Virus record (IMG/VR): IMGVR_UViG_3300045988_098105
Coordinates: 1-64,000 of that record
Length of the DNA stretch: 64,000 nucleotides
Reading direction: 5' to 3' (one strand)
Source of the DNA: a virus
Shown here one piece after another: positions 10,130 to 64,000 of the stretch. Every line of letters begins with the position of its first letter. Position 1 is the stretch's first letter. The notes beneath the pieces were generated by a model that saw nothing but the letters and a program-made list of their open reading frames with translations, was not told where the DNA came from and did no database searches. The translations under genes and the position numbers were made by a program.

Positions 10130-10144
10130 TAAAAAAGCGAGCGT

Positions 10145-44555: not shown

Positions 44556-45141
44556 TTCCCTAACTAGGAAAAAATATTTCTCCAACTAGGAAAACCAAAA
44601 CCGCCTAAATCATATTCTAAAAGCCTTAATCCTAGATGAGCACATTATCCGGCACAAAACCATGAAATCTACGAAAAACCCACAAAATCGGCTCTAATCT
44701 GCTTGCAAATGGCTCTTAAACGGCTCAAAACTCACGAATTTGGGAGAAATCCCGACCAACTGCCCGAAAATCGCAAAAATCGGCAGAAATGGGCGGTTTT
44801 AGCGTTGATTATGGGTGAAAACAATTCAAGAAGGCTGAATACGGCTAGTTAAAGTTTGCTAACGAACTCCTTGCATGCGTGCGTACCTATTAATGCAAAA
44901 CCCCTTTTTTGTTTGCAAAGAATCTTCTTTTATGAAATAAGAACTTTCTTTACATTATTGCTTTATTTATCCTCGGGAGTGATTGAAACTAACTTGCTTA
45001 TAATTAACCACTTGTCTTTTCTTTACAATAATCACGTTTTCTTACAAAATTGGTATTCTAGAGGGCGAAATGGGAGGAGGAAAAGGGGTGAGTTGCGCCC
45101 CGAGAAAGAAATTGGTGGGATTTTGGGCGATTTTGAACGAG

Positions 45142-45183
45142 GTTGGAACATGGCAAAACCGAACTTCAAATATTATATATTTG
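45142..45183 (+). promoter_or_regulatory. late-promoter candidate for the cargo/giant-ORF operon
   Basis: GTTGGAACATGGCAAA at 45142..45157, an 18-nt spacer, then TATATTTG at 45176..45183. ATG 45211 lies 27 nt further on. Confidence 0.6.
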
Positions 45184-45210
45184 CCCTCGAAACATCAAAT
45201 AATTGCAATT

Positions 45211-46220: not shown

Positions 46221-47144
46221 ATGACATTTGAAGAAGCAAAAAAGATATTGAAGAAAGAAGGTTACTGTCTGATTAAAGTCTCAAAAGGTTTTGAATTCTC
46301 AGAATTGCCAGTAATGAAGAAGCAAGAAGTCATTGAAGCAACAAGAGTTGTCAACGAGAATAGTTTTGCTGTATCAATGACTGAAGCTGAACGGATTGAT
46401 CGTCAAGAGCGTTTGAAGAAGGAGTATGAAAAGAACACCAGGACTCTTGGTCCTGGTGAAGAACAGCCAAAGGAAGGCAACCCTGCCCTTAAAGAAGCAG
46501 CCTCCCGGTTCAACGATGCCTTGCTGGATGAGCAGGCGAAGAAGATTGAAGAGCTTACCAAGGAGAAAACAAATCTGGAGGATCAGATTACGATTTTGAA
46601 TGCTTGCAAAGAGTATAACGAGAACGCTGGCAGAAAACATATTAAGCGTCTCGGCAAGGAGATTTCCAAATTGAACAGCATCATCCATGACAAGAACGCT
46701 GTTTTGGCTGACGTTGCAGAGGAACTTCGCCTTTCAAAGATTCGTGAGAAGAATCTTGCCGAGTTAGGTCTGAAATATGTTGGGGAGAATGAGGAGTTGA
46801 AGAAGGAGCTTGCCAATAAGGTTGTTGACAAGATTGATGCTCAGGCTTTGAAGAGTGCCGAGAGTGCTCTCGCTTATAAGGATAAGGTGATTGCCGACTT
46901 GACAAAGAAATTGAATGTTAAGCACAAGAAGTATGTATATTACAATGGCACAATCGTAGCAGTTCAGCGGCTTGTCAACACCCTTGCAGGTTACGCAGCA
47001 AAGCGTTATTATAAGGAATTATGCGACCAGATGGTTGGGACTGATATTGCAGAGGAAGGCGCAGACCTTTCTGGCGTATTTGTATTGTGTGGCAAGGATT
47101 TTATTGATGCACTAAAGAAAGCAAAAGACGTATGGCAGGAGTAA
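46221..47144 (+). CDS. hypothetical coiled-coil protein (307 aa)
   Basis: Track ORF, Lys/Glu/Leu-rich. Confidence 0.55.
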   Translation: MTFEEAKKILKKEGYCLIKVSKGFEFSELPVMKKQEVIEATRVVNENSFAVSMTEAERIDRQERLKKEYEKNTRTLGPGEEQPKEGNPALKEAASRFNDALLDEQAKKIEELTKEKTNLEDQITILNACKEYNENAGRKHIKRLGKEISKLNSIIHDKNAVLADVAEELRLSKIREKNLAELGLKYVGENEELKKELANKVVDKIDAQALKSAESALAYKDKVIADLTKKLNVKHKKYVYYNGTIVAVQRLVNTLAGYAAKRYYKELCDQMVGTDIAEEGADLSGVFVLCGKDFIDALKKAKDVWQE

Positions 47145-48553
47145 ATAATCAGAATACGCAGCAGCCTAGGAAGAAGCCGGTAACTATCGGCGGCTATCCT
47201 GAGGCTGTGCATGACCTGATGAGGGCGAAATATCCCGATTATGATCAGGTGATGAATGGAGGCAACGGAGGGGCCGCGGTGGTTAATGGCGGTGCCTCGG
47301 GCGTTAACTTCTTCGGGAATGGGGGCGGTGCTACCGGTAAGTTTGAGGCTCAGACTGTTCAGACTGGCGCAGCACCTATTACAGACTTCACCCAGATGCC
47401 TAAGCAGGAAGAGTTTGTTCCGCAGGGAAGCGGTAATGCTAACCCTGCCTTGGGACCAGTACAGACTCCTTACATGGGCGATGCAGCGTTGAATACTCCC
47501 CAGCCTCAGAGCAACTTTGAGGGAATGCCGCAGCCTTCTACTGGTTGGAATGCTGACGGAACACCTCGCTATGATACGCTTTCTACTGCTTTGAGCGGAT
47601 TTCAGATGCCGCAGGAACAGCAGGTTCCAGAGTTTGAGGCTGACCCTAAACAGAGGGATGGCGGGTTTTTCAGTTGGCTCGGCAAGGTTATGCCGAAGAG
47701 CAGACCGGGAATGCGTGAGGGCGAGACACCTGACGAATATGACCGCAGAATCACTACCAACCGTGAGAATATCGCTGCCTTTGCTGATGCTATTCGCCAC
47801 ATGGGAAACATCGTGAATACGTCGAAGGGTGCGCCTCTGCAGGTGTTCAACGACCCTACTGCCATGATGGAACAGGGTTATCAGAACCGCAAGGCTCAGA
47901 GACAGAAACAGGCTGCTCTTGATGCGGATGCTGCCTATAAGCAGGCAAATCTCGACCTAGATAACCGAAAAGCACAGGCTGATCAGGTTTATAAGGAGTA
48001 TCTTATGGGGCTTCGTGGTGAAGGTAATCAGCTTGCCAAGGATAAGTTTGAGTACCGAAAGGGAAAGGATGAGGCTGCTGCCCAGTATAAGAAGGACAAG
48101 GATAAGCGTGACTTTGAGTATAAGAAGGAACGTGACAAGGTGAAGGATGAGCAGGCTAGGCAGCGTCTGGCTATTCAGCAGTACAACGCAACCCATAAGG
48201 GGCGTGGCGGCGGTGGCCGGTCAGGCAAGAGTGGTAGCGGCTCGGGTGCAAAGTACTGGTTTGAGGATAAGAACGGCAAGATGCGCTATCAGCCTAACAA
48301 GACCATGTGGGAACAGGAGTACTATCGTGAATACGGCAAGCTTCCGCAGGGCGAGACTTCTACTTCTACCAGTACAAAGACTATCAATCCGAAGACTGGC
48401 GCAGAGGTAACGACCACCACAAGAAGAAAGGGCGCATCCGTTACCAGTCAGGCAGCAGCTTCGCAGAATGCGGCTAGGAATGCGAGAAACAGACCGAAGC
48501 CTGCCGGCAAATCGAAGAACGGATATAAGAATACAAAGAAACTTGGTTTATAA
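47132..48553 (+). CDS. hypothetical low-complexity Gly/Gln/Lys-rich protein (473 aa)
   Basis: Track ORF containing GGNGGAAVVNGGASGVNFFGNGGGATG and KGRGGGGRSGKSGSGSGAKYW. The composition is typical of ejected internal proteins. Confidence 0.55.
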   Translation: MAGVNNQNTQQPRKKPVTIGGYPEAVHDLMRAKYPDYDQVMNGGNGGAAVVNGGASGVNFFGNGGGATGKFEAQTVQTGAAPITDFTQMPKQEEFVPQGSGNANPALGPVQTPYMGDAALNTPQPQSNFEGMPQPSTGWNADGTPRYDTLSTALSGFQMPQEQQVPEFEADPKQRDGGFFSWLGKVMPKSRPGMREGETPDEYDRRITTNRENIAAFADAIRHMGNIVNTSKGAPLQVFNDPTAMMEQGYQNRKAQRQKQAALDADAAYKQANLDLDNRKAQADQVYKEYLMGLRGEGNQLAKDKFEYRKGKDEAAAQYKKDKDKRDFEYKKERDKVKDEQARQRLAIQQYNATHKGRGGGGRSGKSGSGSGAKYWFEDKNGKMRYQPNKTMWEQEYYREYGKLPQGETSTSTSTKTINPKTGAEVTTTTRRKGASVTSQAAASQNAARNARNRPKPAGKSKNGYKNTKKLGL

Positions 48554-48570: not shown

Positions 48571-51500
48571 ATGGCTGGAGATAAATTTGACCAACTTTAC
48601 AACGCCTTGAAAGCCGATGGCGCAGTTTCAGGAACTAGAGAACATTTCAGACAGTTCGTGTATGCGCCGGGCAAGCAGGGCTATCATAACAGAAAGCAGC
48701 TCTATGATGCGCTTCACGCAGACGGTGCTGTTTCCAGTAATTCGTATGAGGAGTTTGCGCAGCGGCTCGGACTTCATGCAGTAAATCCGAAGCCTCAGCA
48801 GCAGAAGCCAGTTCAGCCTGTCAAGAAGCAGACTATGAAGCAGAGAGCGCAGGAAGTCGCAGCTCAGTATCAGAAGTCAAGGCAGCAGAAGGCTCAGCAG
48901 CCTAGAACGGCTACTACTTCTGGTACGGACTACATGCAGAACTGGAAGTTGATGCACATGCGTAACGACCAAATGAACCCGATGCAGCAGGCTCAGGCTA
49001 GTAATGCGCGCGCACGCATGCAAAGAGCACAAGAGCAGTCGGCACGTCAGGAACAGCAGAGAGCTACCCCTATCAGCAGAAGCAGGATAACCCCTACTGC
49101 CAAGAACTTCAATGAGACAATGCAGCAGCTTTCTACTCCAGAGGCTAGACAGGCTAGAGCCAAGCAGCAGCGAGAGGACGATGCAAGAGCACTTGCCCAG
49201 TATGAGGTTGAGGGTAACAAGTTCGTAAGGAATGACGGCAAGACCGAAGGTATTTTGGGTAATGATCTTCTCAGTCTGGTTGACTCTTCCATGAACGAGG
49301 CGCAGGAGTTGACACGTCAGCAGTATCAGCAGAACCTTGACAAGATGGGTGGCATCTATGCGCCTCAGTCGGTAAAGGAACAGGCTTTCCGTGATGCTCA
49401 GACGCAGGAGCAGGTGAACCGTCAGAACGTTCTGATGAACAATCTCAGCAGCAAAATCAACGAGATTTATTCGCAGAAGGGAATGCAGCGCCATATTGCC
49501 GAGAGCGCAGAGAAACTGAACATGAGTGTGGAGGAATACGTGGACAAATACGTTACACCAGAGATTATGAACTATGCTCAGAAGGCTCTGACGATGCGTA
49601 ATCAGGAGGAAATCATGCCTCATGGTGCGCTTGACTATATTGCCAAGAACCTCAGTAACTCTATTATCGGTATGGTGGTGGCTCCTTCCGTGATGTCTAG
49701 AGATACACGACAGAGATTGCAGGAAGGTATTGCTATTGCAGATGGTGATACGGAAATTCAGAAGGTTGCCGGCCACAAGGACGAAACCTATCGCTCGGGC
49801 ATCGGTACGAGATTCGCATCTACTGCCGTAAACATGGCTGCTGATTCTGGTCCGCTTGCCGTAATCGGTGCCGGCGCAAGTGCTGCCGTGAATACTGGAA
49901 CCCGAGTTCTGACTAACGGACTGGTGAAGGCTGGCGTGATGAAGGCGGCACAGAAGCTTACCGCCCAGCAGATGGCTTTCAAGGTGGCCAACATGACTAC
50001 GGCACAGAAGATCATGTCGGGATTGGGAACCAGAACAGCAACAGGTGCGCTGAACCTTGCAGGATATTCGGGTATAACTGCTGCCTTGAATCAGGCTTCT
50101 ACTGGCGATGATACTTCGCTGCAGGCTATCGGCGAGGCTGGTCTGAAAGGTGCTGAGCATGGTGCGGTAACGGGTGCGATGTTTGGAGTTTCGGGCGCAA
50201 TCATGTTGCCTTGGGTTTCCAAGTTCGGAATCACCGGCATGGAGAAGAGTACTGGCGAGCGATTGCTTCATGGCGCGCAGAAGTTTGGTGCTACGGCTGC
50301 CGGTCTGGGCGTTGAGGCTGGAACCATGATGGTAGCTGACAACGTGACCGGTGATAAGGATATTTCCTTTGGTACTTGGTTGGAAGATGTTGTGATGGTT
50401 GGCGCATTCAAGGCTGGAGAGCCTAGCAACTTCGTGAAGATGGGCAACATTCTGCATCATCTTACCCATAATAGCGGTGGTAATTTCGTGATTGGAAAGA
50501 ATGCCAACGGCTCCCCTATTGCCGTGGATATTCGTCTGACTCCTGACGAGAAGAATGAATTGATTTCTTCTGCATCGGGCAAGAATCTGATGGATGCTTT
50601 CGTGAAGGTGGACCGTGCATCGAAGACCGCCCCAAGAGATCCGAAGTACAAAACAGCATACACGGATTTTATGAACGACCCAGAGGTTTCTCAGAGCACC
50701 AAAGAGAAGGTGAATGCGGCCATGGGACTATTTAACACGACAAGAGGCAAAAGCTACCGCAGCGTGAACGACGTGAAGAACAAACAGATTCTTGAATACA
50801 CCAAGAACGGAACGCTGCTTACACGTACATCTTATAAGAATGCCGATGAGCGCAGAGCTATTCTTTACAAGCAGAAGCTTTATCGTGATAATGACGATAT
50901 GATGTCGCTGATGGGCTACGCAAGGATGAAGGATATGCAGTTCTTAGATGATGATGGAAATGTCACTAATTTAGCATTTAGATTCCTTAAAGAAAACGGA
51001 TATGATGAGAATAAGGATATTACAGACCCGAATAATGCCCGACTGATTAATGAGTTGCGCAACCAGAAGAGTGCGCTCTATCTTGACTGGGAAAAGTATG
51101 CGGACAAAAACGGCTTGCTTGGCTACCTCAGATCAGAAAGCAAAGGTTATACTAATAACTTCATGGCTTCTATCAAAGAACTTCTTGGTAAAGAAGGAAG
51201 CATTGTTATTGATATTGACAAAATCATGCGCAAGGACCCAATGAAGCGTACCGATGAGGAGAACAGAATCTTCTATCATGTGAAGAGAGCACTCGAAGAT
51301 GAGCTTTTCCCTAGCTGGAGACCACACGCAGACCAGTCTGCCAGCCAAGGTAAGACAGTTGCCGAGGAGCATAGTCTGGGAACGGATAACCCGGATAGCG
51401 GCGTGGTAGTTGATGAGTTGCGCAACCTTCGCAACGCAGAGCAAGCCCTTGATGCAGCGATGGATAGCAACGATGTGTTCAAGCAAACCTTTGAGCAATT

Positions 51501-54500
51501 ACACCAGCAGGGCTTGACACCGGCACAGATTTACGATGCACTCATTCAGAATGGATTGCTCCAAGAAGAGTTAACCCCACTTGCCCAATATATTAATGCG
51601 AACGCTAGAGTGCAGGGTATGCAGCAGGCTACTGCTGATGCTATAGAGGAAAACGTGAAGAGCTTTATTTCTGATTGGAGCTATCACGGAACATTGAACG
51701 GTCAGGCGATGAATGGCGAGCAGGCTCTGTACGTTCAGGACAACAGCGGAAGAACACTTCTTGTTGGTTCGGGTGATGTTGCCTTCGACCAGACTTCAGG
51801 TAGAGCCAAGGAAGGCAGCGGTGATATGCTTGTCTGTCTAGACCCTAATACCAAGGGATTGGTTTATGTGAAGGCAGACGATGTTACTCTGGTTCTAAAC
51901 CAGCCTATCGACCAGTTTGCTGCAGAATATCGTCAGAGATTACAGATGAAGAACTCTGAGCCTTACAATCAGGCAGCACAGGAGCAGGCGATGCAGGATG
52001 CTGCAAAGCCTCAGCCAAAGGAGCAAGAGGCACCACAAGATAATACCACAAAATCGGAAGATAGTACCACAAAAGAGGGTGATTTAACAAAAGTTGATAC
52101 CACTTTAACAAAAGTTGATACCACATCGGGCGAAGATAATACCACAAATGAGAACTTAGCACCACAAGAGCAGCCTCAGCAGACCCGAAAGTTTGCCGAT
52201 GGTTCCGATGTTCCTATGGCTACGGATAGCAAGGGAAGACCTACACCAGACTATGCTAGTATGACTCCTGAACAGAGTGCGGAGATTCTTACTGAGGACT
52301 TCGGGGATAATGCTGAGAAGGTGGTGGACGGACAGATTAAGAAAGCTGAGAATGCTTTGAAGGATGCCGAGAAGATGAAGGTGGACTATACCGCCGAACC
52401 TAACGACATCATGGAGCAGGAGGCTTTGAAGAACCAGACCATTGAAGCTGCCAAGAAACAGTTGGACCACGCTCAGAATATCAAGAAGGCTATGACTGCC
52501 AAGAAGGTTGCTGAGACCGTGGGTAAGACAGAACAGACTGAGGGCGCACATGAAGCTGGTAGCGTGGCTGCACAGAAGTTTGTGAATGCGCCTAGACTTG
52601 TAGGCAACAAGCGCACGCGAATGCTGCCTGACGGAGAGACTAAGATTAAGGGTCACTATGAGATTGTTCCGGCTGAAAGTCTTACTCCTTCTCATGATGT
52701 GAATAACGACTATAAAAAATCTGAGGGATTCCCTACCGATGCTGAGGGCAGAACCGTGAATGACCGTGACTATGAGCACGACAAGGCGGCTCAGCAGAAT
52801 ACGGGCCAGATTGCCCGAAAGTATAATGGTATGGCTATCGAGAATGTGCCAGTTGTATCTGACGAGGGTATCGTTTATGATGGCAACGGCAGAACGATGG
52901 CAGGACAGAAGGCAGCAAAGGAAGGTACGGACGCTGAATACATCAACGACCTTCTGGAGAATGCCGAGAACTTCGGCTTTACCAGAGAGCAGATTGAGCA
53001 GAGCGGAATCGAGCATCCTCGTCTGGTTATGGTGACTGATGAGAGACTGCCTTACGATGCAGCTACCTTCGCTAAGTTCAACCGAAACGAGAAGAAGACT
53101 CAGAGCAATACCGAACAGGCGGTTGCCAAGGCTAAGACTTTGACTTCTGACGAGGTAGGCGCGATTGTTGCCGAGATTGAGGGAAATGGTTCTCTTGATG
53201 CTTTCTTTAACAATTCCAAGGCAATAAATGACTTGGTAAAGACGTTAGTAGATAAAGGCATCATCGGACAGAACGAGGTGGCACAGATGATGGATAGTCC
53301 TGAGCGACTTTCTGCACAAGGCAGGGAGTATGTGAAGAACCTTCTGTTGGGTTCTATCTTTAAGCCAGAGACTATCAGAATGCTGGGCATCGACTCTACG
53401 GTAAAGAATAAGGCTATCAACGCTATCCGCTCGGTAATGGACAACATGAAGCTGGGCGAGTTCTCTCTTCGTGATGAGATTGATCAGGCTATTCAGTTGC
53501 TCTACGAGGCAAGACAGGGCGGCAATAAGGTTGATACGTTGCTGAGAACACCGGACATGTTCGGTGAGGATGCGGCTAAGCGTTACTCTTCTATCTCTCA
53601 GATGATGGCTTTGGCCTTGGAGGGCAAGGTTTCTGATTTCAGAGATTTGCTTGACGAATACAACCGCATCGCTAAGGCTAGAAATACTGGCGAGGGCAAT
53701 ATGTTTGAGGCAGCTCCTACCAAGGAAGAGTTAATTAACGAGTATTTGAACTTTAAAAAATGGCAAGATTATGGAACAGGACATTCAGAAAATGAAAGAG
53801 GCAATGATGTTTCAGGCGTTGAAGAACCTCAACAGGAAGCATCAGGAGGAAATGAACCAGCCGAAGCTGAGCGACCAAGAGTAGAAGAGGCTGACGACTT
53901 AGTAAACAAGGAACTCGAAAGTCGCATTGAGGTGACGGACGAGGAAACCGAGACCCCATCAAAGTACGGTCCTATCATGAAGCAAAAGATTCTGATTGAT
54001 GGAGACAAGGAGGTTATCAAGGTTGATGAGCCAAACGAGAAGGGAGAATACACCGGCTCATACTATGAGTATGATGGCAAGAAGTTTGGTGACCTGAATG
54101 AGGTTGTAGAGCATATTGACGAGGCGAATGCAGATAAGTTGACTGATGTAGAATCTGATTGGCAAAATAAAATTGACGATTATATCGCCGAGCACTACCC
54201 ACACCATAATGGTGTTCGTTCTCGCACGCCAGAAGAGCAAGCTGCATACGATGCTGAGACTGAGGCAATGAAGAATGATCCAGTTTTGGCACAGATGCGC
54301 AAGGATGCTGAAAATGCTTATAAGGAAGCAGAAGGTCCTCTCCCACTTCTTCCTAAAGAAGAGAAGCCAGACCCTACTTTTGACCCGATTGCAGCGGCTG
54401 CTGCTGAGTTTAAGAAGGAACATCCTTTGACCGAGGATGAGATTATGAAGGCTGACGTGGATGATTTATCCAAGGATATGGCTCTTGATTATCTGAACGG

Positions 54501-57500
54501 TGAGGTGACAGATGATTTGCATCGTGCTATCTACGAAAGCATCTTTGCCAAGACCAGAGGGCAGAAGACTGAACCAAAGGTTGAGACTTCTAAAACGGAA
54601 CCATCTGCTGACCCTATGGAAGGAATCAAGAATGCAGCAGAAGGATTCGAGAAGGAGAAGAAAGCAAAAATCGAAAAGAAGCCTCAGCAAACTGCTGACG
54701 ATGCAGCAGTAGCGGCTTCCAACAAGAAGGTTAATGACCTTTGGAATATGCTCAAAAATGCCGGCAATGATGAAATGTCCGCTTCGTTTATTGGTCTTAA
54801 CTCTAGACAGCTGGAAGTATTGCCTAAGCTGGTGAGCGCCATGGCAGAGAATGCTTATCTGAGAATCAAGAGAGGTATGCACAATCTTGAAGACGTGGTG
54901 AAGGAAATGCGCAAGGAGTTTGCTCCTGCTGCCAAGCTCTTTAAGAAGGAAGACGTGGATGCCATCTATGAGCAGATGATGAATATCCGCTATCGCGATG
55001 GCGAGCAGCGCATGAGCTTGAAGGATTGGGCTGACTACTACGAGAAGACTTCACCTAAGCATCAGGAGAATCTGGTGGGTGACTCCAAGAGTGCCGAGGA
55101 AAGAAAGATGGCCGAGAAGAAGTTTATTGATGTCGTGAACCTACAGTTGGGCTTCAAACATAAGTTTAACGGAATCGTTGAACTGAGAAAGATAGCAGAG
55201 AGACTCGGTTTGAAGGACATTAAAGACACAGACCTTCAGGAGCTTGCAGAAACAGCTATTGTTAAGCGAGCAAGAGGTATTGCTTCTTCGGAGTCTACCA
55301 ACGATGCGGTGAAGTTTGAACGCATCAAGACGCTCTATGAGAATCAGCCGAGCCTCAACCAGAGAGATTCTGAGCGAGTGATGAAGCAGCAGTACTCTAC
55401 CCCTGCCCCTTACGCTTTCCTTGCAGATATGTATGTGAAGGGCAACGGCAAGGTGATTGAGAGTGCTCTGGAGCCTAGTGCCGGCAACGGTATGCTTACC
55501 ATCGGCTTGCCAATGGATAAGGTACATGTGAACGATATTGATGCCCAGCGATTGGCTAACCTGAGAAGACAGGGCTTCAAGAACGTGACGAGTCAGGACG
55601 GAACCCAGCCTTTTGCAGACAAGGACGTTGACGTGGTGGTTACAAATCCACCATTCGGTAGTGCTACCACTAAGGAGTATGACGGCTACAAGATTTCTTC
55701 TTTGGAAGGACAGATGGCTATCAATGCCTTGGAGAGCATGAAGGACGATGGCCGTGCTGCCATTATCATCGGCGGCAAGACGGAATACGCCAAGAACGGA
55801 AGTCTGAATCCGAAAGATAAGGCTTTCCTTGGTTATCTCTATAGCCACTATAATGTGGAGGACGTGATTAATGTGGATGGAAGTCTCTATGCAAAACAGG
55901 GAACCAGCTACCCTACACGTATTATATTAATAAACGGAAGACGCTTGAACGAGAATGCCTTTCCACCAGTAAAGGATAAGGCTAGAGCGGAAGCCGTGAA
56001 AGATTATGACGAACTTTATAAACGAATTGAAGATGATATACTACGAGGTGAACGGATGGATTCTTCCATCGGAGGAGAAACAAGAAGTGCTCAACCAGAA
56101 CTTGATAAACAAGGCGCTACTGGTACTCCTAAAGAGAGAGTACGAACAGGAGAACGAGGAGGAAGCAAACCAGATGGTGAGCGAGAGTCTGACTTATTTG
56201 ACTCCACTTCCGTATCAGGAACCCATGATGACTTGGAAAATCAACGAGGAACCGAGCCAAGACAAGATGGAGGACTTTCTGATGGAGATAGTAGAACAGA
56301 CGGAACAGGGACAGAGCCTTCTACAAGCAAAGAACCAACCACTGGAACCAATGAGCAGCGAGGAAATGGATCGGGAGGAGCTGGACGGAATGACACTCAG
56401 CCAAGTGCTGATGAACCTGCCAGCACCGGGAGCGGAAGCGGACCACGGGGACAATTACAGCGGGTGGACAAATCCGTACGTGGACTAAGTACTGAGAAAG
56501 TTACTTACGCCCCTAAGAGTGAAAACCCATTCACTCTGAAAGCAGTTATGCCTGCCGATCAGCAGGAGGCGGTAAACAAGAACCTTGAAAAGTTGGGCGA
56601 TGCAGACCAGTTCCTTGTTGATGAACTGGGCTATAATGATAAGGATGATTTGTATTCTCATCTTGCCGCAGAGCAGGTTGACTCTGTAGCCCTTGCCTTG
56701 CAGCAGGCAAAGAAGGGTAACGCATTCATCATCGGCGATATGACTGGTATCGGTAAGGGAAGACAGGCTGCTTCGCTTATCAGATACGCCAAGAAGCAGG
56801 GTCAGGTCCCTGTATATTTCACCAAGACAGCAGGATTGCTGAGTGATGTTTATCGTGACTTGGTGGATATTGGCAGCCCAGACCTAAGACCATTTGTATT
56901 CGGTAGTGCAAAGGAAGCTGCCATTACCGACTCAGACGGAAATGTAGTATTCGCTTTGCCATCGAAGAGCGAGGTGAAGCGTGTGCTCGACTACATCGAA
57001 AAGAACGGAAAACTACCAGACGAATACGACTATGTATTGACTACTTACAGCCAAGTAAGCAATGGTGTGTATGAGTTTGACGAGAATGGTGCCCGAAAAG
57101 AGAAGAAACTTGCGAAGGGTAAGACATTCGGCGCTGCTGCCCTTAGCGGACAAAGAAGACGTGATGCTATTGAAAAACTGATGGGTAACGCCTATCTTAT
57201 CCTTGATGAAAGCCACACGGCTGGTGGCAATAGCGGTCAGGGTAACTACTTCCAACACATTATTCAGAAGGCAAAGAACGTTACCTTCTTCTCTGCAACC
57301 TTTGCCAAGAGACCTGACAACATGCCTATCTATGCTTTGCGTACTGCCATGAATGAGGGCGGTATGAAATCATCCGACTTGATTGATGCGGTAAAGCGTG
57401 GTGGTGCAACCTTGCAAGAAATCATGAGCCAGACCTTAACACAATGCGGTCAGATGATTCGCCGTGAGCGAGATATGACTGGCGTAACCATCGACTGGAA

Positions 57501-60500
57501 GGCGATTGATGATCCTGAGCGAGTACAGGAACAGCGAGAACAGTATGATAGTATCATCGGTTTGTTTAATGATATTATCAATTTCCAAAAGAAATACGTT
57601 TCAAGTTACGTGGATGAGCGTAATGACGAGTTGGCTGCCATTCAGTCTACCATTGGAATCAAGAAGGGAACGGCTGCCCTGGGTATCAAGAATCAGCCAT
57701 TTGCCAGCAAGGCGTTCAATACCGTTCAGCAGGTTCTTCTCTCTCTGAAAGCGAAGTCTGCTGCAGAACGTGCAATCGACTATTTGAAGCAGGGTATGAA
57801 GCCTGTGATTGCGTTGAATAATACCAACGAATCGCAGACTGGCAATCTTGCGCTTGGTGAGGAAATGGACGCACCAGACTTGGGCACATCTTTGAAAAAG
57901 GGTCTGGAGGGTACACTTCGCTATACTCAGAAGGACGCAAAGGATAATAGTGAAAGCGGCTACATCAAGCTTTCTGATTTGGGTGATGAGGCAGTTGAGG
58001 CTTATCACGAACTGGAAAAGAAGATTGAGCAGACAAGTACCGGTCTTTCACTCTCCCCTATTGATGTTATCAAGAACGAGTTGCAGAAGGCAGGTTATAA
58101 GGTTGGCGAGCTGACCGGTAGACAGACCGAGTTCGTTTATAACGACAACGGAACTGTTACCAAGGTGAAGCGTGCTGATACAGACAAGAAGAAACTCGCG
58201 CGCGACTTTAACGATGGCAAGATTGATGCGCTTATTCTCAACAAGAGTGCAGCAACCGGTATTTCCCTTCATGCTTCGAGCAAGTATAAGGACCAGAAGA
58301 AGCGTGTGATGATCGTGGCGCAGCAGCAGCTTGACGTAAACGATGAGGTTCAGATGCGTGGACGTATCGACCGAACCGGTCAGGTGGCTAGAGGTGCATA
58401 CGAGTATGTGGTTTCCCTTATCCCTGCCGAGCAGCGACTGCTGATGATGTTTAAGGCTAAGTTGAAGTCACTTGATGCCAACACTACTTCTTCTCAGAAG
58501 AGTAAGTTCAACGAAATGGAAGTTGCCGATATTACCAATAAATATGGTGATAAGGTAGTTCGTGAGTATATGGCAGAGCATCTTGACCTTTATGCTCGCA
58601 TGGCTGATCCATTCGGATGGGAAAAGAGTAATGGCGATGATTTGTCTAGAATCGACCCACAGACTCTTGTTGCAAGCGGTAGCGGTGTTGGCGATGGCGA
58701 AGCTGGTGCCGATGCAAGCAAGTTGCTTGGGCGTATGGCTCTGCTGAGAGTTTCAGAGCAGGAGAAGATGTTGCAGGAGATTGGCGAGCTTTATGCCAAC
58801 GAGATTCAGCGACTCAACGAAATGGGTGAGAATGACCTTGAAATTACCGAGCTGCCTCTGAAGGCTAAGACTCTCCACAAGGAAGTTTGGAAGCAGGGTG
58901 CAGAGCCGGGCGGCGATAACGCCTTTGCTGACAACACCTATATAGAAAAGGTGAACATGGCCATCTTGAAGAAACCGATGAAGGCTTCTGAGGTGAAGGC
59001 TTCGCAGGAAGGCTTGACTGGCGGCAAGACATGGGATGAATACAAGACCGAGAAGAAGGCTGCCGTGAAGGAGTACTTCGACCAGAAGATTGCGGACGAG
59101 ACTCAGAAGTATGAGGAACGTGCCGTGAAGGCTGCAACCAAGGCTAAGGAGAAATATATCAAGGACGCTAAGAAAGGTCAAAAGGATTCGGGCATGAGCG
59201 ATGAGCAGATTGAGAAGATGGCTGGCTATCAGTATGACAACATCTACAAGCAGGAGAAAGATAAGCTGAACGATGTGGTGAAGAACCTGAAAGCCAAGGC
59301 TGAAATGTTTGAGCGTGTGCTTGATACCTTCGATACAAACCAGACTTTCGTTCTGCCTACAGATATGAATAACCCTAACGAGTTGAGCGGATTCGGTAAC
59401 AGTTATGGTAGACTTATTGACATCAAGATTACTGATAACTTCTCGCCTAACGCCTCTTCCGTTTCCTTTGCTACCTTGGATGGCAGAAGAAAGATTACAT
59501 TCCCTATCGCGGGTAAGGTGGGTTCTGGTGAAAACAAGGTGGATATTATCGGTTCTATCGACCGCATGACTAAGCAGGCTGCCGGTATGGGCGATAATCA
59601 TATCAAGGTATTGAACCAAGACCTTAATAATTGGGATAGACTGACGAGTAACGAGAGCCGCAAGGATGGCTATATTGTAACTGGTAATCTGATGCAGGCT
59701 CTGGTTGACAGTAAGGATCAGGGCTTGGGCGGTCAGCTGGTGAAATATACAACTGATACTGGCGAGGTGAAGACTGGTATCTTGATGCCAGATAGATTCG
59801 ACCCTAAGGGCTTGACTACAGATGCGCCTATCAACAGCGTAACAGAGAAGTTTGAACTTTCTTCTTGGCATGGTGGTATTGACGAGGTTACTTCATCGGA
59901 TGGTGAAGTAAAGGTGAAGCGTATAGACAACAATCGTGGTTACTACTATGAACTTCGTGTACCGAAGAGCAAGGCGAAGGGCGGCAAGTACTTCATGGAT
60001 AATGACTTGCTGAAACTGGTTAATGGTAATAACTTCGAGACAAGAGGTAACAATATGCTTGCTGAGTTCAAGCCAGAGCAGTTGAAGCCAGTACTGGACC
60101 GCCTGTCTAAGATGGGCGTGAAGGTGCAGGAGGAGCGCAATACTTCTGAGGATGAAGGCACCCACTTCCGTGAGGACCGAGGCTTTCAGTATTCTAAAAC
60201 AGATACAAAAGATGTTAAGAAAGGTAGAATCATTCCGGAAGATGTAGATAAAAACGTATCTTCGCAGATTGAAAAGAGATTCGATGATGAGGTTGAAAGA
60301 CTTTATGGTAGCATTTCCGACCATCCAAACGTAAAGAGATATGCAGAATTGATGGCAAATAAGTTTGCTAACAATCAATACGTTGATACTTTCGATTATG
60401 ACAAGAAGATGCAGCCAACGAAAAAGCATGATGGTCTGAAAACTATCATTGATTCTCTTGATAACAAACTTAAAGATATTGAAAAGAAGTATGGAATCAA

Positions 60501-63500
60501 GCAAAGTGACAACATCCGAGATATTGAAAGAAGGGTCAAGGAAGGACAGAGTTTGTCCGAAGCCATCGACGACTCCCGTACAAATGGGGGCAATGGTAGA
60601 CTACGGAATCACGCCGGAGGAAGTGATACAGGAAGAGAAGGAACTGGCGGAAGCGGAGAAAGAAATGCTATTAGAACGCTTGAAGGACTCAGGGTGCTCG
60701 ATGAGTACAAGCGAGCAGCAATTGATAAAGCAGCGGCTGAAAGAGCTAGAGAGTATCTTATCGAACGCTTCAACGACTTCCGACACAAATACGGTCTTGA
60801 AGAAGGAGACTGGGCTAGTCAGGATCTGGCAGAAAGGATATTCAATGATAACAACAGCGATAAGGACGTTCAGAAGATCTTTGATCGTATTAGAGGATTA
60901 GTAGAAATTCTCGGAACAAAGCTAAGACACGGAGCCGAGTCTGAAAATAGAGTTAAGGGATATTACAACCATCCTGAAAACTTTATTCATATCGACTCTG
61001 ACTTCTTATCAGCCATTCGGTTTACTAAGCAAGACTTAGCATCTACAGTTTGTCATGAAATGTTGCATGTTGTAACATCTGACATAATCAACCTTTACCG
61101 AAAAGGATATGGTGACTTGCTTACTGAATCACAAAGAAAGGCAGCTAAAGAGGTAGTTGATTTGTATGACGAAATAAAGTCTTACTTTGATAAGCATATC
61201 GGTGGTACTGAGCCTTACGCACTAAAAAATCCTGCCGAAATGATAACTGAGTTGGCTAACCCAGAATGGAGAAAGATAGCAGCTCAGATTCCTGCTCAAA
61301 AAGGATGGTTCAGAAGAGTTTTCAATGCCATTAAAAAGATGCTTGGATTCCACGTTGACACAACGACCGATCTAGACAGACTTGACAAAGCATTGGAGAA
61401 CGTAATCAGAAATTTTGATTATGAAAGATTCCAAAAGGGAGCCGAATTAAACAACGAGATTGTTGAAAGTAAGGTTACTGACCCTGAGTTAATCAAGCGA
61501 CTTGAAGAGGAGCCTAAGATTAAGGTATATCGTGCCATGCAGGTTATTGACGGAAAGCTTTATCCACCTATGGCTGCTTCTGTGGGCGGTAAACTTGTTG
61601 AGGCTAACGAACTTGGGCAGTGGATTCGTGCCGACGAGAACCCAGACTTGGCTATCCCGGATATTGACCCTAAGACTGGCGAACAGAAGGTAGACAAGAA
61701 GACCGGCGAACTGAAATGGAAATTCAAGCTTGACAAGGGCGGCAGGGATGCTACCGGCAAGAAGGCAACAGATATAAATGCAGCCTACAATCCTTACTGG
61801 CACATGTCTCGCTCTCCATTGAACGACCAGTTTAAATCGGCTTGGATTCGTCCTAACATCGTTGTCGTGGAATGCGAAACACCAGTTAGTGAACTTTCTA
61901 GCGGCTACAAGGCAGATAGAGCCAAGGATGCTGTGGGCGAAGTTGACTGGAAGAGCGGTAGCGTGAGCGGAGAGGTGTTCAAACAGACTGGCAGGGCTAG
62001 AAAGGTTATCCTCTCTCGTTGGTGTAAGCCTGTTAGAGTGCTCGATGATGCAGAGGTGGCTCAGAAAGCGAAGGGGTTTATCGGCGATGCGAAGGTTGAG
62101 ATTCCTGAGAATGTACTGACTCCTAAGCAGAGAATAGCCTTTGAGGAGGCTGGCTTTAAGATTGGTGCTCCTGAGAAGGGCGTGAAGAAATCAGAGCAGA
62201 TTATGGAAGCTCTGGAGAAGGGATTGACTATTGACAATACTGTTCTTCCAGATGATGGCACCAAGTTCCGCACGGACCACGGCGATGGCAACTACCCTAC
62301 TTCATCGGTTGAAAACCATGTAGAGAAGGTGGCTCAGAAGACTGGTGCAAAGGTGAACATGGTTTCATCAGTTGATGAAATCAACAACAAGGCAGCGAAG
62401 GCTGCCATTGAGAAAGGTAGAAAGATAACCGGTTGGTATGATGAGAAGACTGGCGAGGTGCATCTTTATATGCCTAATATCCACGATAGATATACTGCCG
62501 AGAAGACTATCTGGCATGAGGTGGTTGGACACAAGGGAATGAGAGAGTTGTTTGGTGATGAACGATTCGACAAGTTCCTTCGTGAAGTATGGTACGACTT
62601 GGATAAGCCTGAGAATGCGGCTTTGAAGAAGCTGGTGGATGAGGAGAGAAAGTTCAACCCTCTGAATATCTATGATGCCATTGAGGAAGGTATCGCCCGA
62701 CTCGCCGAGGATGGCAAGGGTGAAGCTGGCTTTTGGAATGGTATCAAGAATAAGGTATCTGATTTCCTTCATGAAATCGGTTATCGTATTGCTCCTAATA
62801 CTAAAGATGTGAAGTATCTGCTCTGGTTGAGCAAGAACTTGCAGAAGAATCCAAATGATCCTTATTGGAAACTGAGAGCCGAGGCGGTGAAATACCGTCT
62901 CGACCATGAGCGTATGCCTGCTGTCGTGGCGCATGACGGTATGTTCTACGGAAATGACGGAAAGGTTAGAAGTATGGATAATCTTACCAAGGCTGAGTGG
63001 AATGAGGCTACAGATGGTGAGATCCACTTCCGTACTACCCCATCTGCCGGCACGGCACTTGACAGATACCACCGTTCGCTCGGTGAACATGGCTATATGT
63101 TCACCGAGAGCTATATGGACAATATGCTTTCGCTGAAGAAGTTGATGAATGCGATTGTTCCTGACAAGAAGATTGAGGATATTGCCTCTTCGGAGAATCC
63201 TTATATCTTGCAGAGCACCATGCAGGGCGCGATGAGCGATGCGGCTCAGATGTTTGAGCGCAACGTGATGAAACCTCTTGATAAGGCCATGGCCGGCGTA
63301 CTGGATGCTTTCGATGGCAAGAAGGATGATGAGAAGATAAGAAACTTCAATCTCTACATGATTACCAAGCACGGTTTGGAGCGAAACCGTATCTTGTATG
63401 TGCGTGATGCCTTGAAGTATATGCGCATGAACGAGAAGACCAAGAAGCTAGCTGATACTGTGGAGTTCGATTGGAACAACGAGAAGGCTACCCTTGACGA

Positions 63501-64000
63501 GAAATTGGAGCGTGGAGACATCGACTTGAAGACTTATTATGAGCGCATGGACGATTTCATCCGTACCTACGTGGATAGTGACAATAAGTTTGATGCTGGC
63601 GAACATGACTATTCGGGCATTCATGCTATACAGGAAGTGGCTAAGTCTTCTGATCCTTACGATGATGCTGAGGCTATCGCTAGCGTGATGGATTCAGAAG
63701 CAAAGATGGAGAGTATCAAGAAGGGGTCTGTTAAGGACTATTGGGATAAGGTGAAGGCTGCTACCCAGTATTCTATTGATACTGACTATAAGAATGGTCT
63801 TATCAGCAGAGAGCTTTACGGTCATGTGTCTGATATGTTCAACTGGTATGTGCCTTTGAGAAAGTATGATGAGGCTACTGCAGAAGATACTTATGGCTAC
63901 ATTACTGAGCAGGGCGACCCGAAGAGCTATATCGGAAGCACGATCATGAGAGCGAGAGGACACAAGTATCTGAGTGAGACAAACGTGCTGGCTCAGATTG
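48571..64000 (+). CDS. giant multi-domain (polyvalent-type) protein, at least 5,143 codons, 3' end beyond the window
   Basis: ATG at 48571. I read the frame codon by codon to 64000 without meeting a stop. The track lists no + ORF in this frame (pos mod 3 = 1), consistent with one open frame that lacks a stop in the window. Motifs are DGNGR, EPSAGNG, NPPF, GDMTGIGKGRQ, DESH, QMRGRIDRTGQ, HEMLH and HEVVGH (coordinates in findings). Confidence 0.85.
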   Translation, partial: MAGDKFDQLYNALKADGAVSGTREHFRQFVYAPGKQGYHNRKQLYDALHADGAVSSNSYEEFAQRLGLHAVNPKPQQQKPVQPVKKQTMKQRAQEVAAQYQKSRQQKAQQPRTATTSGTDYMQNWKLMHMRNDQMNPMQQAQASNARARMQRAQEQSARQEQQRATPISRSRITPTAKNFNETMQQLSTPEARQARAKQQREDDARALAQYEVEGNKFVRNDGKTEGILGNDLLSLVDSSMNEAQELTRQQYQQNLDKMGGIYAPQSVKEQAFRDAQTQEQVNRQNVLMNNLSSKINEIYSQKGMQRHIAESAEKLNMSVEEYVDKYVTPEIMNYAQKALTMRNQEEIMPHGALDYIAKNLSNSIIGMVVAPSVMSRDTRQRLQEGIAIADGDTEIQKVAGHKDETYRSGIGTRFASTAVNMAADSGPLAVIGAGASAAVNTGTRVLTNGLVKAGVMKAAQKLTAQQMAFKVANMTTAQKIMSGLGTRTATGALNLAGYSGITAALNQASTGDDTSLQAIGEAGLKGAEHGAVTGAMFGVSGAIMLPWVSKFGITGMEKSTGERLLHGAQKFGATAAGLGVEAGTMMVADNVTGDKDISFGTWLEDVVMVGAFKAGEPSNFVKMGNILHHLTHNSGGNFVIGKNANGSPIAVDIRLTPDEKNELISSASGKNLMDAFVKVDRASKTAPRDPKYKTAYTDFMNDPEVSQSTKEKVNAAMGLFNTTRGKSYRSVNDVKNKQILEYTKNGTLLTRTSYKNADERRAILYKQKLYRDNDDMMSLMGYARMKDMQFLDDDGNVTNLAFRFLKENGYDENKDITDPNNARLINELRNQKSALYLDWEKYADKNGLLGYLRSESKGYTNNFMASIKELLGKEGSIVIDIDKIMRKDPMKRTDEENRIFYHVKRALEDELFPSWRPHADQSASQGKTVAEEHSLGTDNPDSGVVVDELRNLRNAEQALDAAMDSNDVFKQTFEQLHQQGLTPAQIYDALIQNGLLQEELTPLAQYINANARVQGMQQATADAIEENVKSFISDWSYHGTLNGQAMNGEQALYVQDNSGRTLLVGSGDVAFDQTSGRAKEGSGDMLVCLDPNTKGLVYVKADDVTLVLNQPIDQFAAEYRQRLQMKNSEPYNQAAQEQAMQDAAKPQPKEQEAPQDNTTKSEDSTTKEGDLTKVDTTLTKVDTTSGEDNTTNENLAPQEQPQQTRKFADGSDVPMATDSKGRPTPDYASMTPEQSAEILTEDFGDNAEKVVDGQIKKAENALKDAEKMKVDYTAEPNDIMEQEALKNQTIEAAKKQLDHAQNIKKAMTAKKVAETVGKTEQTEGAHEAGSVAAQKFVNAPRLVGNKRTRMLPDGETKIKGHYEIVPAESLTPSHDVNNDYKKSEGFPTDAEGRTVNDRDYEHDKAAQQNTGQIARKYNGMAIENVPVVSDEGIVYDGNGRTMAGQKAAKEGTDAEYINDLLENAENFGFTREQIEQSGIEHPRLVMVTDERLPYDAATFAKFNRNEKKTQSNTEQAVAKAKTLTSDEVGAIVAEIEGNGSLDAFFNNSKAINDLVKTLVDKGIIGQNEVAQMMDSPERLSAQGREYVKNLLLGSIFKPETIRMLGIDSTVKNKAINAIRSVMDNMKLGEFSLRDEIDQAIQLLYEARQGGNKVDTLLRTPDMFGEDAAKRYSSISQMMALALEGKVSDFRDLLDEYNRIAKARNTGEGNMFEAAPTKEELINEYLNFKKWQDYGTGHSENERGNDVSGVEEPQQEASGGNEPAEAERPRVEEADDLVNKELESRIEVTDEETETPSKYGPIMKQKILIDGDKEVIKVDEPNEKGEYTGSYYEYDGKKFGDLNEVVEHIDEANADKLTDVESDWQNKIDDYIAEHYPHHNGVRSRTPEEQAAYDAETEAMKNDPVLAQMRKDAENAYKEAEGPLPLLPKEEKPDPTFDPIAAAAAEFKKEHPLTEDEIMKADVDDLSKDMALDYLNGEVTDDLHRAIYESIFAKTRGQKTEPKVETSKTEPSADPMEGIKNAAEGFEKEKKAKIEKKPQQTADDAAVAASNKKVNDLWNMLKNAGNDEMSASFIGLNSRQLEVLPKLVSAMAENAYLRIKRGMHNLEDVVKEMRKEFAPAAKLFKKEDVDAIYEQMMNIRYRDGEQRMSLKDWADYYEKTSPKHQENLVGDSKSAEERKMAEKKFIDVVNLQLGFKHKFNGIVELRKIAERLGLKDIKDTDLQELAETAIVKRARGIASSESTNDAVKFERIKTLYENQPSLNQRDSERVMKQQYSTPAPYAFLADMYVKGNGKVIESALEPSAGNGMLTIGLPMDKVHVNDIDAQRLANLRRQGFKNVTSQDGTQPFADKDVDVVVTNPPFGSATTKEYDGYKISSLEGQMAINALESMKDDGRAAIIIGGKTEYAKNGSLNPKDKAFLGYLYSHYNVEDVINVDGSLYAKQGTSYPTRIILINGRRLNENAFPPVKDKARAEAVKDYDELYKRIEDDILRGERMDSSIGGETRSAQPELDKQGATGTPKERVRTGERGGSKPDGERESDLFDSTSVSGTHDDLENQRGTEPRQDGGLSDGDSRTDGTGTEPSTSKEPTTGTNEQRGNGSGGAGRNDTQPSADEPASTGSGSGPRGQLQRVDKSVRGLSTEKVTYAPKSENPFTLKAVMPADQQEAVNKNLEKLGDADQFLVDELGYNDKDDLYSHLAAEQVDSVALALQQAKKGNAFIIGDMTGIGKGRQAASLIRYAKKQGQVPVYFTKTAGLLSDVYRDLVDIGSPDLRPFVFGSAKEAAITDSDGNVVFALPSKSEVKRVLDYIEKNGKLPDEYDYVLTTYSQVSNGVYEFDENGARKEKKLAKGKTFGAAALSGQRRRDAIEKLMGNAYLILDESHTAGGNSGQGNYFQHIIQKAKNVTFFSATFAKRPDNMPIYALRTAMNEGGMKSSDLIDAVKRGGATLQEIMSQTLTQCGQMIRRERDMTGVTIDWKAIDDPERVQEQREQYDSIIGLFNDIINFQKKYVSSYVDERNDELAAIQSTIGIKKGTAALGIKNQPFASKAFNTVQQVLLSLKAKSAAERAIDYLKQGMKPVIALNNTNESQTGNLALGEEMDAPDLGTSLKKGLEGTLRYTQKDAKDNSESGYIKLSDLGDEAVEAYHELEKKIEQTSTGLSLSPIDVIKNELQKAGYKVGELTGRQTEFVYNDNGTVTKVKRADTDKKKLARDFNDGKIDALILNKSAATGISLHASSKYKDQKKRVMIVAQQQLDVNDEVQMRGRIDRTGQVARGAYEYVVSLIPAEQRLLMMFKAKLKSLDANTTSSQKSKFNEMEVADITNKYGDKVVREYMAEHLDLYARMADPFGWEKSNGDDLSRIDPQTLVASGSGVGDGEAGADASKLLGRMALLRVSEQEKMLQEIGELYANEIQRLNEMGENDLEITELPLKAKTLHKEVWKQGAEPGGDNAFADNTYIEKVNMAILKKPMKASEVKASQEGLTGGKTWDEYKTEKKAAVKEYFDQKIADETQKYEERAVKAATKAKEKYIKDAKKGQKDSGMSDEQIEKMAGYQYDNIYKQEKDKLNDVVKNLKAKAEMFERVLDTFDTNQTFVLPTDMNNPNELSGFGNSYGRLIDIKITDNFSPNASSVSFATLDGRRKITFPIAGKVGSGENKVDIIGSIDRMTKQAAGMGDNHIKVLNQDLNNWDRLTSNESRKDGYIVTGNLMQALVDSKDQGLGGQLVKYTTDTGEVKTGILMPDRFDPKGLTTDAPINSVTEKFELSSWHGGIDEVTSSDGEVKVKRIDNNRGYYYELRVPKSKAKGGKYFMDNDLLKLVNGNNFETRGNNMLAEFKPEQLKPVLDRLSKMGVKVQEERNTSEDEGTHFREDRGFQYSKTDTKDVKKGRIIPEDVDKNVSSQIEKRFDDEVERLYGSISDHPNVKRYAELMANKFANNQYVDTFDYDKKMQPTKKHDGLKTIIDSLDNKLKDIEKKYGIKQSDNIRDIERRVKEGQSLSEAIDDSRTNGGNGRLRNHAGGSDTGREGTGGSGERNAIRTLEGLRVLDEYKRAAIDKAAAERAREYLIERFNDFRHKYGLEEGDWASQDLAERIFNDNNSDKDVQKIFDRIRGLVEILGTKLRHGAESENRVKGYYNHPENFIHIDSDFLSAIRFTKQDLASTVCHEMLHVVTSDIINLYRKGYGDLLTESQRKAAKEVVDLYDEIKSYFDKHIGGTEPYALKNPAEMITELANPEWRKIAAQIPAQKGWFRRVFNAIKKMLGFHVDTTTDLDRLDKALENVIRNFDYERFQKGAELNNEIVESKVTDPELIKRLEEEPKIKVYRAMQVIDGKLYPPMAASVGGKLVEANELGQWIRADENPDLAIPDIDPKTGEQKVDKKTGELKWKFKLDKGGRDATGKKATDINAAYNPYWHMSRSPLNDQFKSAWIRPNIVVVECETPVSELSSGYKADRAKDAVGEVDWKSGSVSGEVFKQTGRARKVILSRWCKPVRVLDDAEVAQKAKGFIGDAKVEIPENVLTPKQRIAFEEAGFKIGAPEKGVKKSEQIMEALEKGLTIDNTVLPDDGTKFRTDHGDGNYPTSSVENHVEKVAQKTGAKVNMVSSVDEINNKAAKAAIEKGRKITGWYDEKTGEVHLYMPNIHDRYTAEKTIWHEVVGHKGMRELFGDERFDKFLREVWYDLDKPENAALKKLVDEERKFNPLNIYDAIEEGIARLAEDGKGEAGFWNGIKNKVSDFLHEIGYRIAPNTKDVKYLLWLSKNLQKNPNDPYWKLRAEAVKYRLDHERMPAVVAHDGMFYGNDGKVRSMDNLTKAEWNEATDGEIHFRTTPSAGTALDRYHRSLGEHGYMFTESYMDNMLSLKKLMNAIVPDKKIEDIASSENPYILQSTMQGAMSDAAQMFERNVMKPLDKAMAGVLDAFDGKKDDEKIRNFNLYMITKHGLERNRILYVRDALKYMRMNEKTKKLADTVEFDWNNEKATLDEKLERGDIDLKTYYERMDDFIRTYVDSDNKFDAGEHDYSGIHAIQEVAKSSDPYDDAEAIASVMDSEAKMESIKKGSVKDYWDKVKAATQYSIDTDYKNGLISRELYGHVSDMFNWYVPLRKYDEATAEDTYGYITEQGDPKSYIGSTIMRARGHKYLSETNVLAQI
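52083..52124 (+). repeat. perfect 21-nt tandem duplication inside the giant ORF
   Basis: TTTAACAAAAGTTGATACCAC occurs twice (52083..52103 and 52104..52124). It is in frame and encodes LTKVDTT twice. Confidence 0.95.

Follow-up and report, generated by a model that had tools for sequence, protein, structure and literature searches.

The first 64,000 nucleotides of the IMG/VR virus record IMGVR_UViG_3300045988_098105 (the whole stretch analysed here, hereafter the window) contain a single giant gene that opens at ATG 48571 on the plus strand and runs uninterrupted to the last nucleotide. Its complete product is a protein of 5,899 amino acids (aa) whose size, hub domains, phage-type domains and phage context agree in placing it, as an original prediction made from the letters alone had proposed, amongst the polyvalent proteins; judged on sequence, the assignment to the phage-type polyvalent proteins sensu Iyer et al. 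2017 is well supported. The protein is probably packaged in the virion and injected together with the phage DNA as a counter-defence factor. The class itself is not new, and metagenomes commonly hold very large members; the parts of note for follow-up are a conserved 260-aa module without matches to known families, and a three-part layout suggestive of delivery.

The giant gene and its domains

On translation, the frame from 48571 to 64000 (plus strand) comprises 5,143 codons with zero stops, exactly as predicted. The closest upstream in-frame stop lies one codon 5′ of the ATG, and at the base composition of the window the probability of an open frame this long is ~1e-136. Following the gene to its stop, a check proposed along with the original prediction, led to three near-identical contigs (L006, L008 and L009) in which the called product has 5,899 aa; the window thus holds codons 1-5,143 and lacks the last 756, the frame running ~2.27 kb past its end. 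An exact 40-mer from the window end had no match in viral, genome or JGI metagenome contigs, and the continuation was reached through exact matches to proteins encoded nearby. A relative (P0001 in locus L003, ~88% identity) supplied the 756 aa that the window lacks, yielding a composite protein of ~658 kDa.

The giant open reading frame (ORF) is one continuous gene and not an assembly artefact. Over its first 3,327 codons, five assemblies from different gut-metagenome samples agree at 99.9-100% nucleotide identity, with no stop of the sort that would split it into several genes. The apparent gene breaks in the relative L003 are two 10-N scaffold gaps, and a draft NCBI contig (L005) carries many frame changes in the giant gene. 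In a further relative, the 80-kb contig L004, a single in-frame TGA (L004:15182-15184) stands where the window has TGG (53752-53754, Trp1728), and 3′ of it the frame is open and ~90% conserved over >3,300 codons. This TGA is most simply read as a point mutation or a tolerated split; recoding of TGA to Trp, considered for this single L004 site, would give the same look. The minus-strand ORFs opposite the giant gene, previously taken for shadows, stem from a mechanical listing and are called as genes in none of the relatives. Giant genes of such kind are often broken by gene callers and assemblers and are probably under-reported.

At least six distinct domain types are present in the giant protein, and every motif listed in the original prediction lies exactly where it had been placed. 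The features within the window, from the N-terminus onwards, are as follows:

48583-48768, plus strand: N-terminal tandem motif of ~30 aa (LYxALxADGAVS...F), aa 5-66, read from the translation
49432-50934, plus strand: N-terminal module, aa ~288-788, Gly/Ala-rich with weakly hydrophobic segments at aa 353-375, 422-447 and 528-549
52639-53022, plus strand: ddrB-type ParB/Srx domain, aa 1357-1484 (Pfam PF18763, E 4e-10, 40.4 bits against a cut-off of 27.6)
55393-55788, plus strand: putative N6-adenine methyltransferase core, aa 2275-2406, with YSTP, EPSAGNG (motif I) and NPPF (motif IV)
56050-56490, plus strand: Gly/Ser/Glu/Arg-rich linker, aa ~2494-2640, from the translation and a composition table
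56662-57549, plus strand: strawberry-notch N-terminal ATPase lobe (AAA_34), aa 2698-2993 (PF13872, E 1.5e-14, 54.1 bits against a cut-off of 27)
58096-58848, plus strand: strawberry-notch C-terminal domain (Helicase_C_4), aa 3176-3426 (PF13871, E 4e-25, 89.5 bits against a cut-off of 30.5)
60733-61440, plus strand: zincin-like block 1, aa ~4055-4290, with HEMLH at 61054 (aa 4162)
61468-62244, plus strand: conserved 260-aa module, aa 4300-4558, common to >30 otherwise different large proteins at 40-85% identity
62308-62910, plus strand: zincin-like block 2, aa 4580-4780, with HEVVGH (HExxxH) at 62515 and a downstream Glu in AIEEGIA
63058-64000, plus strand: start of a conserved helical C-terminal module, aa 4830 onward, continuing beyond the window into LPD38

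The centre of the protein is occupied by a methylase-helicase pair, in which a superfamily 2 (SF2) helicase-like ATPase (aa 2698-3426) lies C-terminal to the methylase motifs (aa 2275-2362). Both lobes of the helicase are above their Pfam thresholds, which bears out its identification as a strawberry-notch enzyme, and its motifs GDMTGIGKGRQ, DESH and QMRGRIDRTGQ are located at 56734, 57205 and 58351, respectively. The assignment of an N6-adenine methylase is supported at the level of motifs (EPSAGNG at 55471, NPPF at 55645), those looked for in gamma-class enzymes (motif I for SAM binding, motif IV NPP[YF] and a TP motif ahead of them) being all present, and PHROG methyltransferase families match it at E 1e-4. 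Further support comes from proteins on 587 plasmids that resemble the methylase-helicase region from end to end. Further upstream, the ParB/Srx-like block that had been recognised by eye is a ddrB-type ParB domain by its Pfam score; YEIVPAESLTPSHD begins at 52657, and DGNGR at 52879 (aa 1437), with the Arg that is conserved in the GxxR pocket of the ParB/Srx superfamily, lies inside the domain. The phage-type domain LPD38 (PF18857) falls in the part beyond the window, at residues 1703-1913 of P0001, and is also found, along with ddrB-ParB, AAA_34 and Helicase_C_4, in the 5,899-aa call of the near-identical contigs. No match to LPD36, a domain N-terminal to the methylase in the P1 DarB family, emerged from general Pfam scans, the existence of a Pfam model for LPD36 being unconfirmed.

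Both zincin-like blocks appear to be metallopeptidase-like, a reading supported by their conserved motifs. In block 1, every aligned homologue that covers the motif retains HE[MLF][ILMV]H, even at ~21% identity, and the Pfam SprT-like family reaches only E 0.12. In block 2, the sole invariant columns amongst 19 homologues (21-56% identity) are H4649, E4650, H4654, G4662 and E4706. In its AlphaFold model, with a predicted local distance difference test (pLDDT) score of ~80, one helix precedes three strands, the helix that bears the motif and additional helices, an order that fits the zincin-like peptidase core of a helix, three strands and two helices; the peptidases with this core include a HEXXXH clade (Iyer et al. 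2017, PMC5512222). A PDB profile search and Pfam scans of the 19 homologues gave no match to block 2, nor did Foldseek return a significant one for a 570-aa model that is partly of low confidence, and the call for this block rests for that reason on motif conservation and topology.

Most of the remaining sequence resists classification: ~85% of the length is without a Pfam match, the original prediction having put the unrecognised share at over half. The protein has no NCBIfam match, and its two halves found nothing amongst PDB sequences at E ≤ 0.1. The composition is unusual as well, in that cysteine accounts for only 5 of the 5,143 residues (0.10%), while its share in this phage's remaining ORFs (those of 100 aa or more) is 1.42% (binomial P ~2e-25); the missing 756 aa, taken from the relative, add 5 more.

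The 260-aa module is widespread. A profile built on it finds 901 clusters among 1.84 billion representatives, and the best 150 of these 901 are mostly proteins of at least 3,000 aa, the longest reaching 7,283 aa. It has no Pfam match, and no Pfam family is common to 19 of its members. The structural model is confident (pLDDT 82, predicted template modelling score 0.80), and against the PDB Foldseek returns nothing (best E 0.67, template modelling score at most 0.2); against a viral structure library only uncharacterised proteins were retrieved. Conserved polar residues include H4411, S4413, D4419, E4441, K4452, D4453 and R4483. The relative L004 lacks aa 4040-4556, such that zincin block 1 and the 260-aa module are gone together, and on this account the module behaves as a mobile cassette. 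A candidate assignment as an R-S-E ADP-ribosyltransferase, raised by YR...S...ExE-like strings, was rejected: the Arg and both Glu residues vary in the alignment, and there is no match to a transferase family. Iyer et al. left some LPD domains unnamed that are absent from Pfam, and the module may be identical with one of these. Its 901 clusters and confident model, together with the lack of matches in Pfam and the PDB, make it a defined target for biochemistry.

Module layout and function

We surveyed the modules by comparing the composite protein with 141 representatives that bear the 260-aa cassette. The N-terminal module (aa ~288-788) occurs in ~10 of the 141 giant proteins, in each case close to the N-terminus of the protein concerned, and the C-terminal module (aa ~4600-5800) in 21-32, while the methylase-helicase pair is found in only 1-2. 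At the extreme N-terminus, the first 70 aa recur in the giant proteins P0143 (73% identity) and P0182 (42%). The C-terminal module is common to P0010, P0016, P0035 and P0101 and to the closest relatives in GenBank, two proteins encoded by the cultured Bacteroides temperate phages BS-TP4 (gp3, 5,391 aa, PQ571277) and BKO1-TP3 (gp55, 5,553 aa, PQ571269). Some relatives carry other effector domains (PBECR2, PBECR3, LPD3, MuF_C and a polyvalent-type kinase), which sit inside the C-terminal module, immediately ahead of it or at other places along the chain; MuF_C, a head-protein domain, is present in relatives of the C-terminal module. The overall layout appears to pair conserved modules at the two termini with variable cargo between them.

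That the giant protein is a virion-packaged, co-injected counter-defence polyvalent protein is the reading we consider rather probable. Packaging and injection are suggested by domains known only from phages, by the position of the giant gene before the portal gene in BS-TP4 and BKO1-TP3, by homology between the first gene upstream of the giant gene and BS-TP4 gp1 (aa 154-226, E 5e-14), by the depletion of cysteine, and by the conserved terminal modules, a parallel to the parts of the N4 virion RNA polymerase that serve injection and encapsidation (PMC5512222). The DdrB-ParB and LPD38 domains have been reported solely from phage-type polyvalent proteins encoded beside virion genes (PMC5512222). 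The PADLOC defence models matched no family at E ≤ 0.001 across three overlapping tiles of the protein, an absence that we counted as further support.

According to this proposal, the giant protein would be made together with the three small family-less proteins encoded just upstream and be loaded into the capsid via its conserved C-terminal module (HExxxH domain, helical region and LPD38). It would then be threaded unfolded through the tail alongside the DNA, aided by the N-terminal module with its Gly/Ala-rich hydrophobic segments. Once in the new host, the ATPase would travel on the entering DNA and the methylase would mark adenines, thereby protecting the DNA in cis from restriction; the ParB-like domain and the modules without an assigned role may act on other host targets, and the peptidase-like domains may cleave the polyprotein into working pieces. 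If the protein is indeed injected, it would be amongst the largest proteins known to cross a phage tail, and would offer a natural system for the loading, delivery and processing of modular counter-defence cargo.

Several observations weigh against this picture. The methylase had been predicted outright and its motifs are conserved, yet Pfam MTS stays just below threshold (E 1.3e-4, 22.1 bits against a cut-off of 23); similarly, the motifs of the two predicted zincin blocks are conserved in homologues and neither block has a profile or fold match. The Gly/Ala-rich stretch at ~49801-50440 is positioned as predicted, with its strings at 49864 and 50296, and its hydrophobic segments (hydropathy maxima 1.16-1.44) are too weak for a call of transmembrane helices. 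Pfam scans of the giant protein itself revealed no MuF or other known head-attachment domain. In this genome the gene is not beside the portal gene and instead follows, on the same strand, the gene for a helix-turn-helix (HTH) regulator at the early/lysogeny boundary. Lastly, the methylase-helicase pair is far commoner on plasmids, and the plasmid copies are not packaged.

It is from these last points that an unpackaged role draws its strength. In such a scenario the protein would be made in the cell early after infection or induction, as a methylase-helicase-nuclease-protease polyprotein that protects or processes replicating phage DNA, much as plasmid methylase-strawberry-notch proteins would after conjugation. 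The giant gene lies downstream of the HTH regulator gene with its promoter match (43835-43866) and away from the portal gene; the 1,200-aa methylase-helicase region matches 587 plasmid records (27-40% identity, up to 97% coverage), and in the Persicobacter plasmid pPP10 its two halves are separate ordinary genes. We nonetheless hold this role to be unlikely: the ddrB-ParB and LPD38 domains come from a set known only beside virion genes, in BS-TP4 and BKO1-TP3 the giant gene does adjoin the portal gene, and neither the cysteine depletion nor the positionally conserved terminal modules have an obvious reason in a purely cytoplasmic enzyme.

A role in prophage defence or superinfection exclusion appears highly improbable. 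Here the methylase, SF2 translocase and ParB-type nuclease would be fused into a restriction-modification-like enzyme directed against competing DNA that enters the cell, and the domain set does indeed resemble that of single-chain restriction enzymes; the phage is temperate by its integrase, a second restriction-type gene (Mrr_cat) is located nearby, and hosts may capture polyvalent proteins for defence (Iyer et al. 2017, PMC5512222). The protein nevertheless matches neither a PADLOC model at the above threshold nor an NCBIfam restriction family, and its size, peptidase blocks, LPD38 domain and the virion-gene synteny of its relatives suit offensive cargo better. We likewise give little credence to a mainly structural internal-core or ejection protein that builds a channel for DNA delivery with enzymatic passengers (like T7 gp14-16 or the P22 ejection proteins): besides the three family-less upstream proteins no other ejection candidates were recognised in this podovirus, the Gly/Ala-rich N-terminal module is conserved and the BS-TP4 gene order runs small proteins, giant, portal, but the nonsense codon at Trp1728 in L004 and the loss of aa 4040-4556 suggest that much of the protein is dispensable or modular, and the fold search with the 570-aa model gave no significant structural match to the T7 core proteins (best E 0.45).

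Building on the packaged, co-injected reading, we tentatively entertain a more general possibility, in which the giant protein is a single-chain delivery vehicle whose terminal modules serve ejection and encapsidation and whose cargo is swappable among gut phages. The 260-aa module would then be a new enzyme fold and an undescribed counter-defence effector distributed over ~900 clusters.

The phage and its gene neighbourhood

The window is, on its gene content, that of a tailed temperate phage, and the element is a temperate podovirus of ~72.8 kb. Window positions 1-15237 match part of contig ERZ946814 k127_2662 at 99.99% identity, and the geometry of that contig indicates the genome length and a circular or circularly permuted form. 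The giant gene, at 17.7 kb, takes up 24% of it. The structural, integration and upstream genes are:

805-2178, minus strand: tail fibre
2365-3021, minus strand: SU10-type adaptor
3537-5237, minus strand: SU10-type capsid protein
6190-8220, plus strand: P22-type portal
10542-12659, plus strand: terminase
32545-33726, minus strand: integrase
45070-45975, plus strand: upstream gene 1, 301 aa (or ~254 aa from ATG 45212), with one hydrophobic segment, from the ORF list
46221-47144, plus strand: upstream gene 2, 307 aa, Lys/Glu-rich, from the ORF list
47132-48553, plus strand: upstream gene 3, 473 aa, Gly/Gln/Lys/Thr-rich, from the ORF list

The window also encodes RecT, an SbcC-like protein, an HNH endonuclease and a NinG/Rap-type endonuclease; no tRNA genes were found within it. 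The structural module (window 1-15437 together with contig L011) combines an SU10-type capsid and adaptor with a P22-type portal in an integrase-bearing temperate phage. The source names of close homologues point to Prevotella/Segatella copri, which is probably the host. The literature searched yielded no paper on phages of this species, a dominant bacterium of the human gut. The element is common, since the 473-aa upstream protein occurs in identical form on at least 23 metagenome contigs, in each case directly 5′ of the giant gene.

The giant gene had been predicted to be the last of a late-promoter-driven operon behind three low-complexity proteins. Three same-strand genes do precede it, gene 3 overlapping gene 2 by 13 nt and leaving a 17-nt gap to the giant ORF, and none of their products has a Pfam, PHROG or NCBIfam match. 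It also is the last gene, because in the 99.99%-identical genome its 3′ neighbour is convergent on the opposite strand, so that the giant gene closes its own transcription unit. A search for the late promoter did not find one: of the six matches to the Bacteroidetes-type motif TTTG-N17-21-TAnnTTTG that the window contains (1.4 expected by chance), none is directly upstream of the giant gene, and the nearest full plus-strand match (43835-43866) lies 5′ of the HTH regulator gene in the early/lysogeny switch. A -7-like TATATTTG is located at 45176-45183, 5′ of the internal ATG 45212 of upstream gene 1. Divergent pairs of Bacteroidetes-type promoter matches are present at 34019-34122, between the integrase and the plus-strand early genes, and at 43697-43866, at the HTH regulator gene. 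Between the pair formed by the HTH gene and a 68-aa gene on the one side and upstream gene 1 on the other, ~670 nt (44400-45070) are without a convincing ORF and contain a GA-rich run, agagagagaagagagaacagagagag (~44510-44540), as well as recurring 'aaaatcg/aaaac' strings; the stretch may have a regulatory or origin-like function.

Beyond the giant gene, a block of five small genes (~297, 114, 166, 87 and 137 aa, the last a DUF7841 protein) separates its end from the tail-fibre genes. The block is oriented with the giant gene in L003 (L003:16895-19858) and in the opposite direction in the window-identical genome (L011:18126-20684); the L003 junction is free of N runs, and the block has no convincing inverted repeats on its flanks. 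Two further genes lie on their own strand between this block and those for the tail fibres (L011:16337-17815, ~1.1-2.6 kb before window position 1 on the circular genome). One encodes a 349-aa protein that carries an Mrr_cat restriction-endonuclease domain, the other its 102-aa partner; the two genes look like a defence or accessory islet.

Comparison with known systems

Like the polyvalent proteins, the giant protein is a multidomain giant with putative zincin-like peptidases, a putative adenine methylase paired with an SF2 ATPase, DdrB-ParB and LPD38, and is encoded by a phage with portal-terminase packaging, the window also holding capsid, adaptor and tail-fibre genes. The methylase-SF2 ATPase pair of this class is typified by DarB, a HEXXXH peptidase clade has been described in it, and strawberry-notch-type ATPases were noted only 'in a few instances' (PMC5512222). 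The giant protein differs from the proteins of Iyer et al. 2017 in its 260-aa module without a Pfam model and in its 5,899 aa, far above the cited size of often >2,000 aa (PMC5512222).

The proteins of BS-TP4 and BKO1-TP3 are of similar size and come from phages of the same host order. With BS-TP4 gp3 the giant protein shares the wider ParB block (aa 1193-1863, 24% identity), the methylase-helicase and the region downstream (aa 2199-3855, 40%) and the C-terminal HExxxH module (aa 4615-5132, 28%). BKO1-TP3 gp55, which is annotated as 'DarB-like antirestriction', shares the same ParB block and the C-terminal module and has no match to the strawberry-notch region. The organisation at the N-terminus is similar, in that a Gly-rich hydrophobic region comes after a short tandem motif. 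The N-terminal 1,190 aa of the window's protein, its zincin block 1 and its 260-aa module are unmatched in either. The two phages differ in gene order too, their giant genes lying directly 5′ of the portal gene. The paper describing them does not discuss these genes, and no description of such giant genes was found in the literature searched on gut phages.

Amongst plasmids, methylase-strawberry-notch proteins measure ~1,100-2,000 aa and are devoid of the phage-type N- and C-terminal modules. The top match (40% identity) resides on the 53-kb Persicobacter psychrovividus pPP10 (L015), a 'non-mobilizable plasmid', where it spans two adjacent genes, for a 340-aa hypothetical and a 1,285-aa strawberry-notch protein, near an amidase gene and many small hypothetical genes. 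These surroundings are why pPP10 may be a phage-plasmid.

The parallel with phage P1 that the original prediction had drawn stands in part. P1 DarB fuses a methylase to a helicase, is carried in the phage head and guards the DNA in cis from type I restriction, and P1 DdrB couples a ParB-like domain to a C-terminal peptidase (PMC5512222); the themes of both are joined in one chain here, the methylase again preceding the helicase. The likeness to DarB is architectural only, and the helicase family differs, that of the giant protein being strawberry-notch. With aa ~2144-3343 as the query, tblastn at E ≤ 1e-5 hit three of 50,697 phage records, with matches to BS-TP4 and one Acinetobacter phage only; a P1-type record was not among them (the presence of P1 in the collection being unconfirmed).

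The virion RNA polymerase of phage N4 offers an analogy of layout. This protein, gp50, is a giant carried in the capsid of a podovirus, with an N-terminal injection region, a central enzymatic cargo and a C-terminal part of ~1,400 aa that includes a zincin-like domain and is needed for encapsidation (PMC5512222). Pfam and PHROG scans of the whole giant protein detected no RNA polymerase domain and the cargo accordingly differs, but the three-part logic of gp50 fits the module map of the giant protein.

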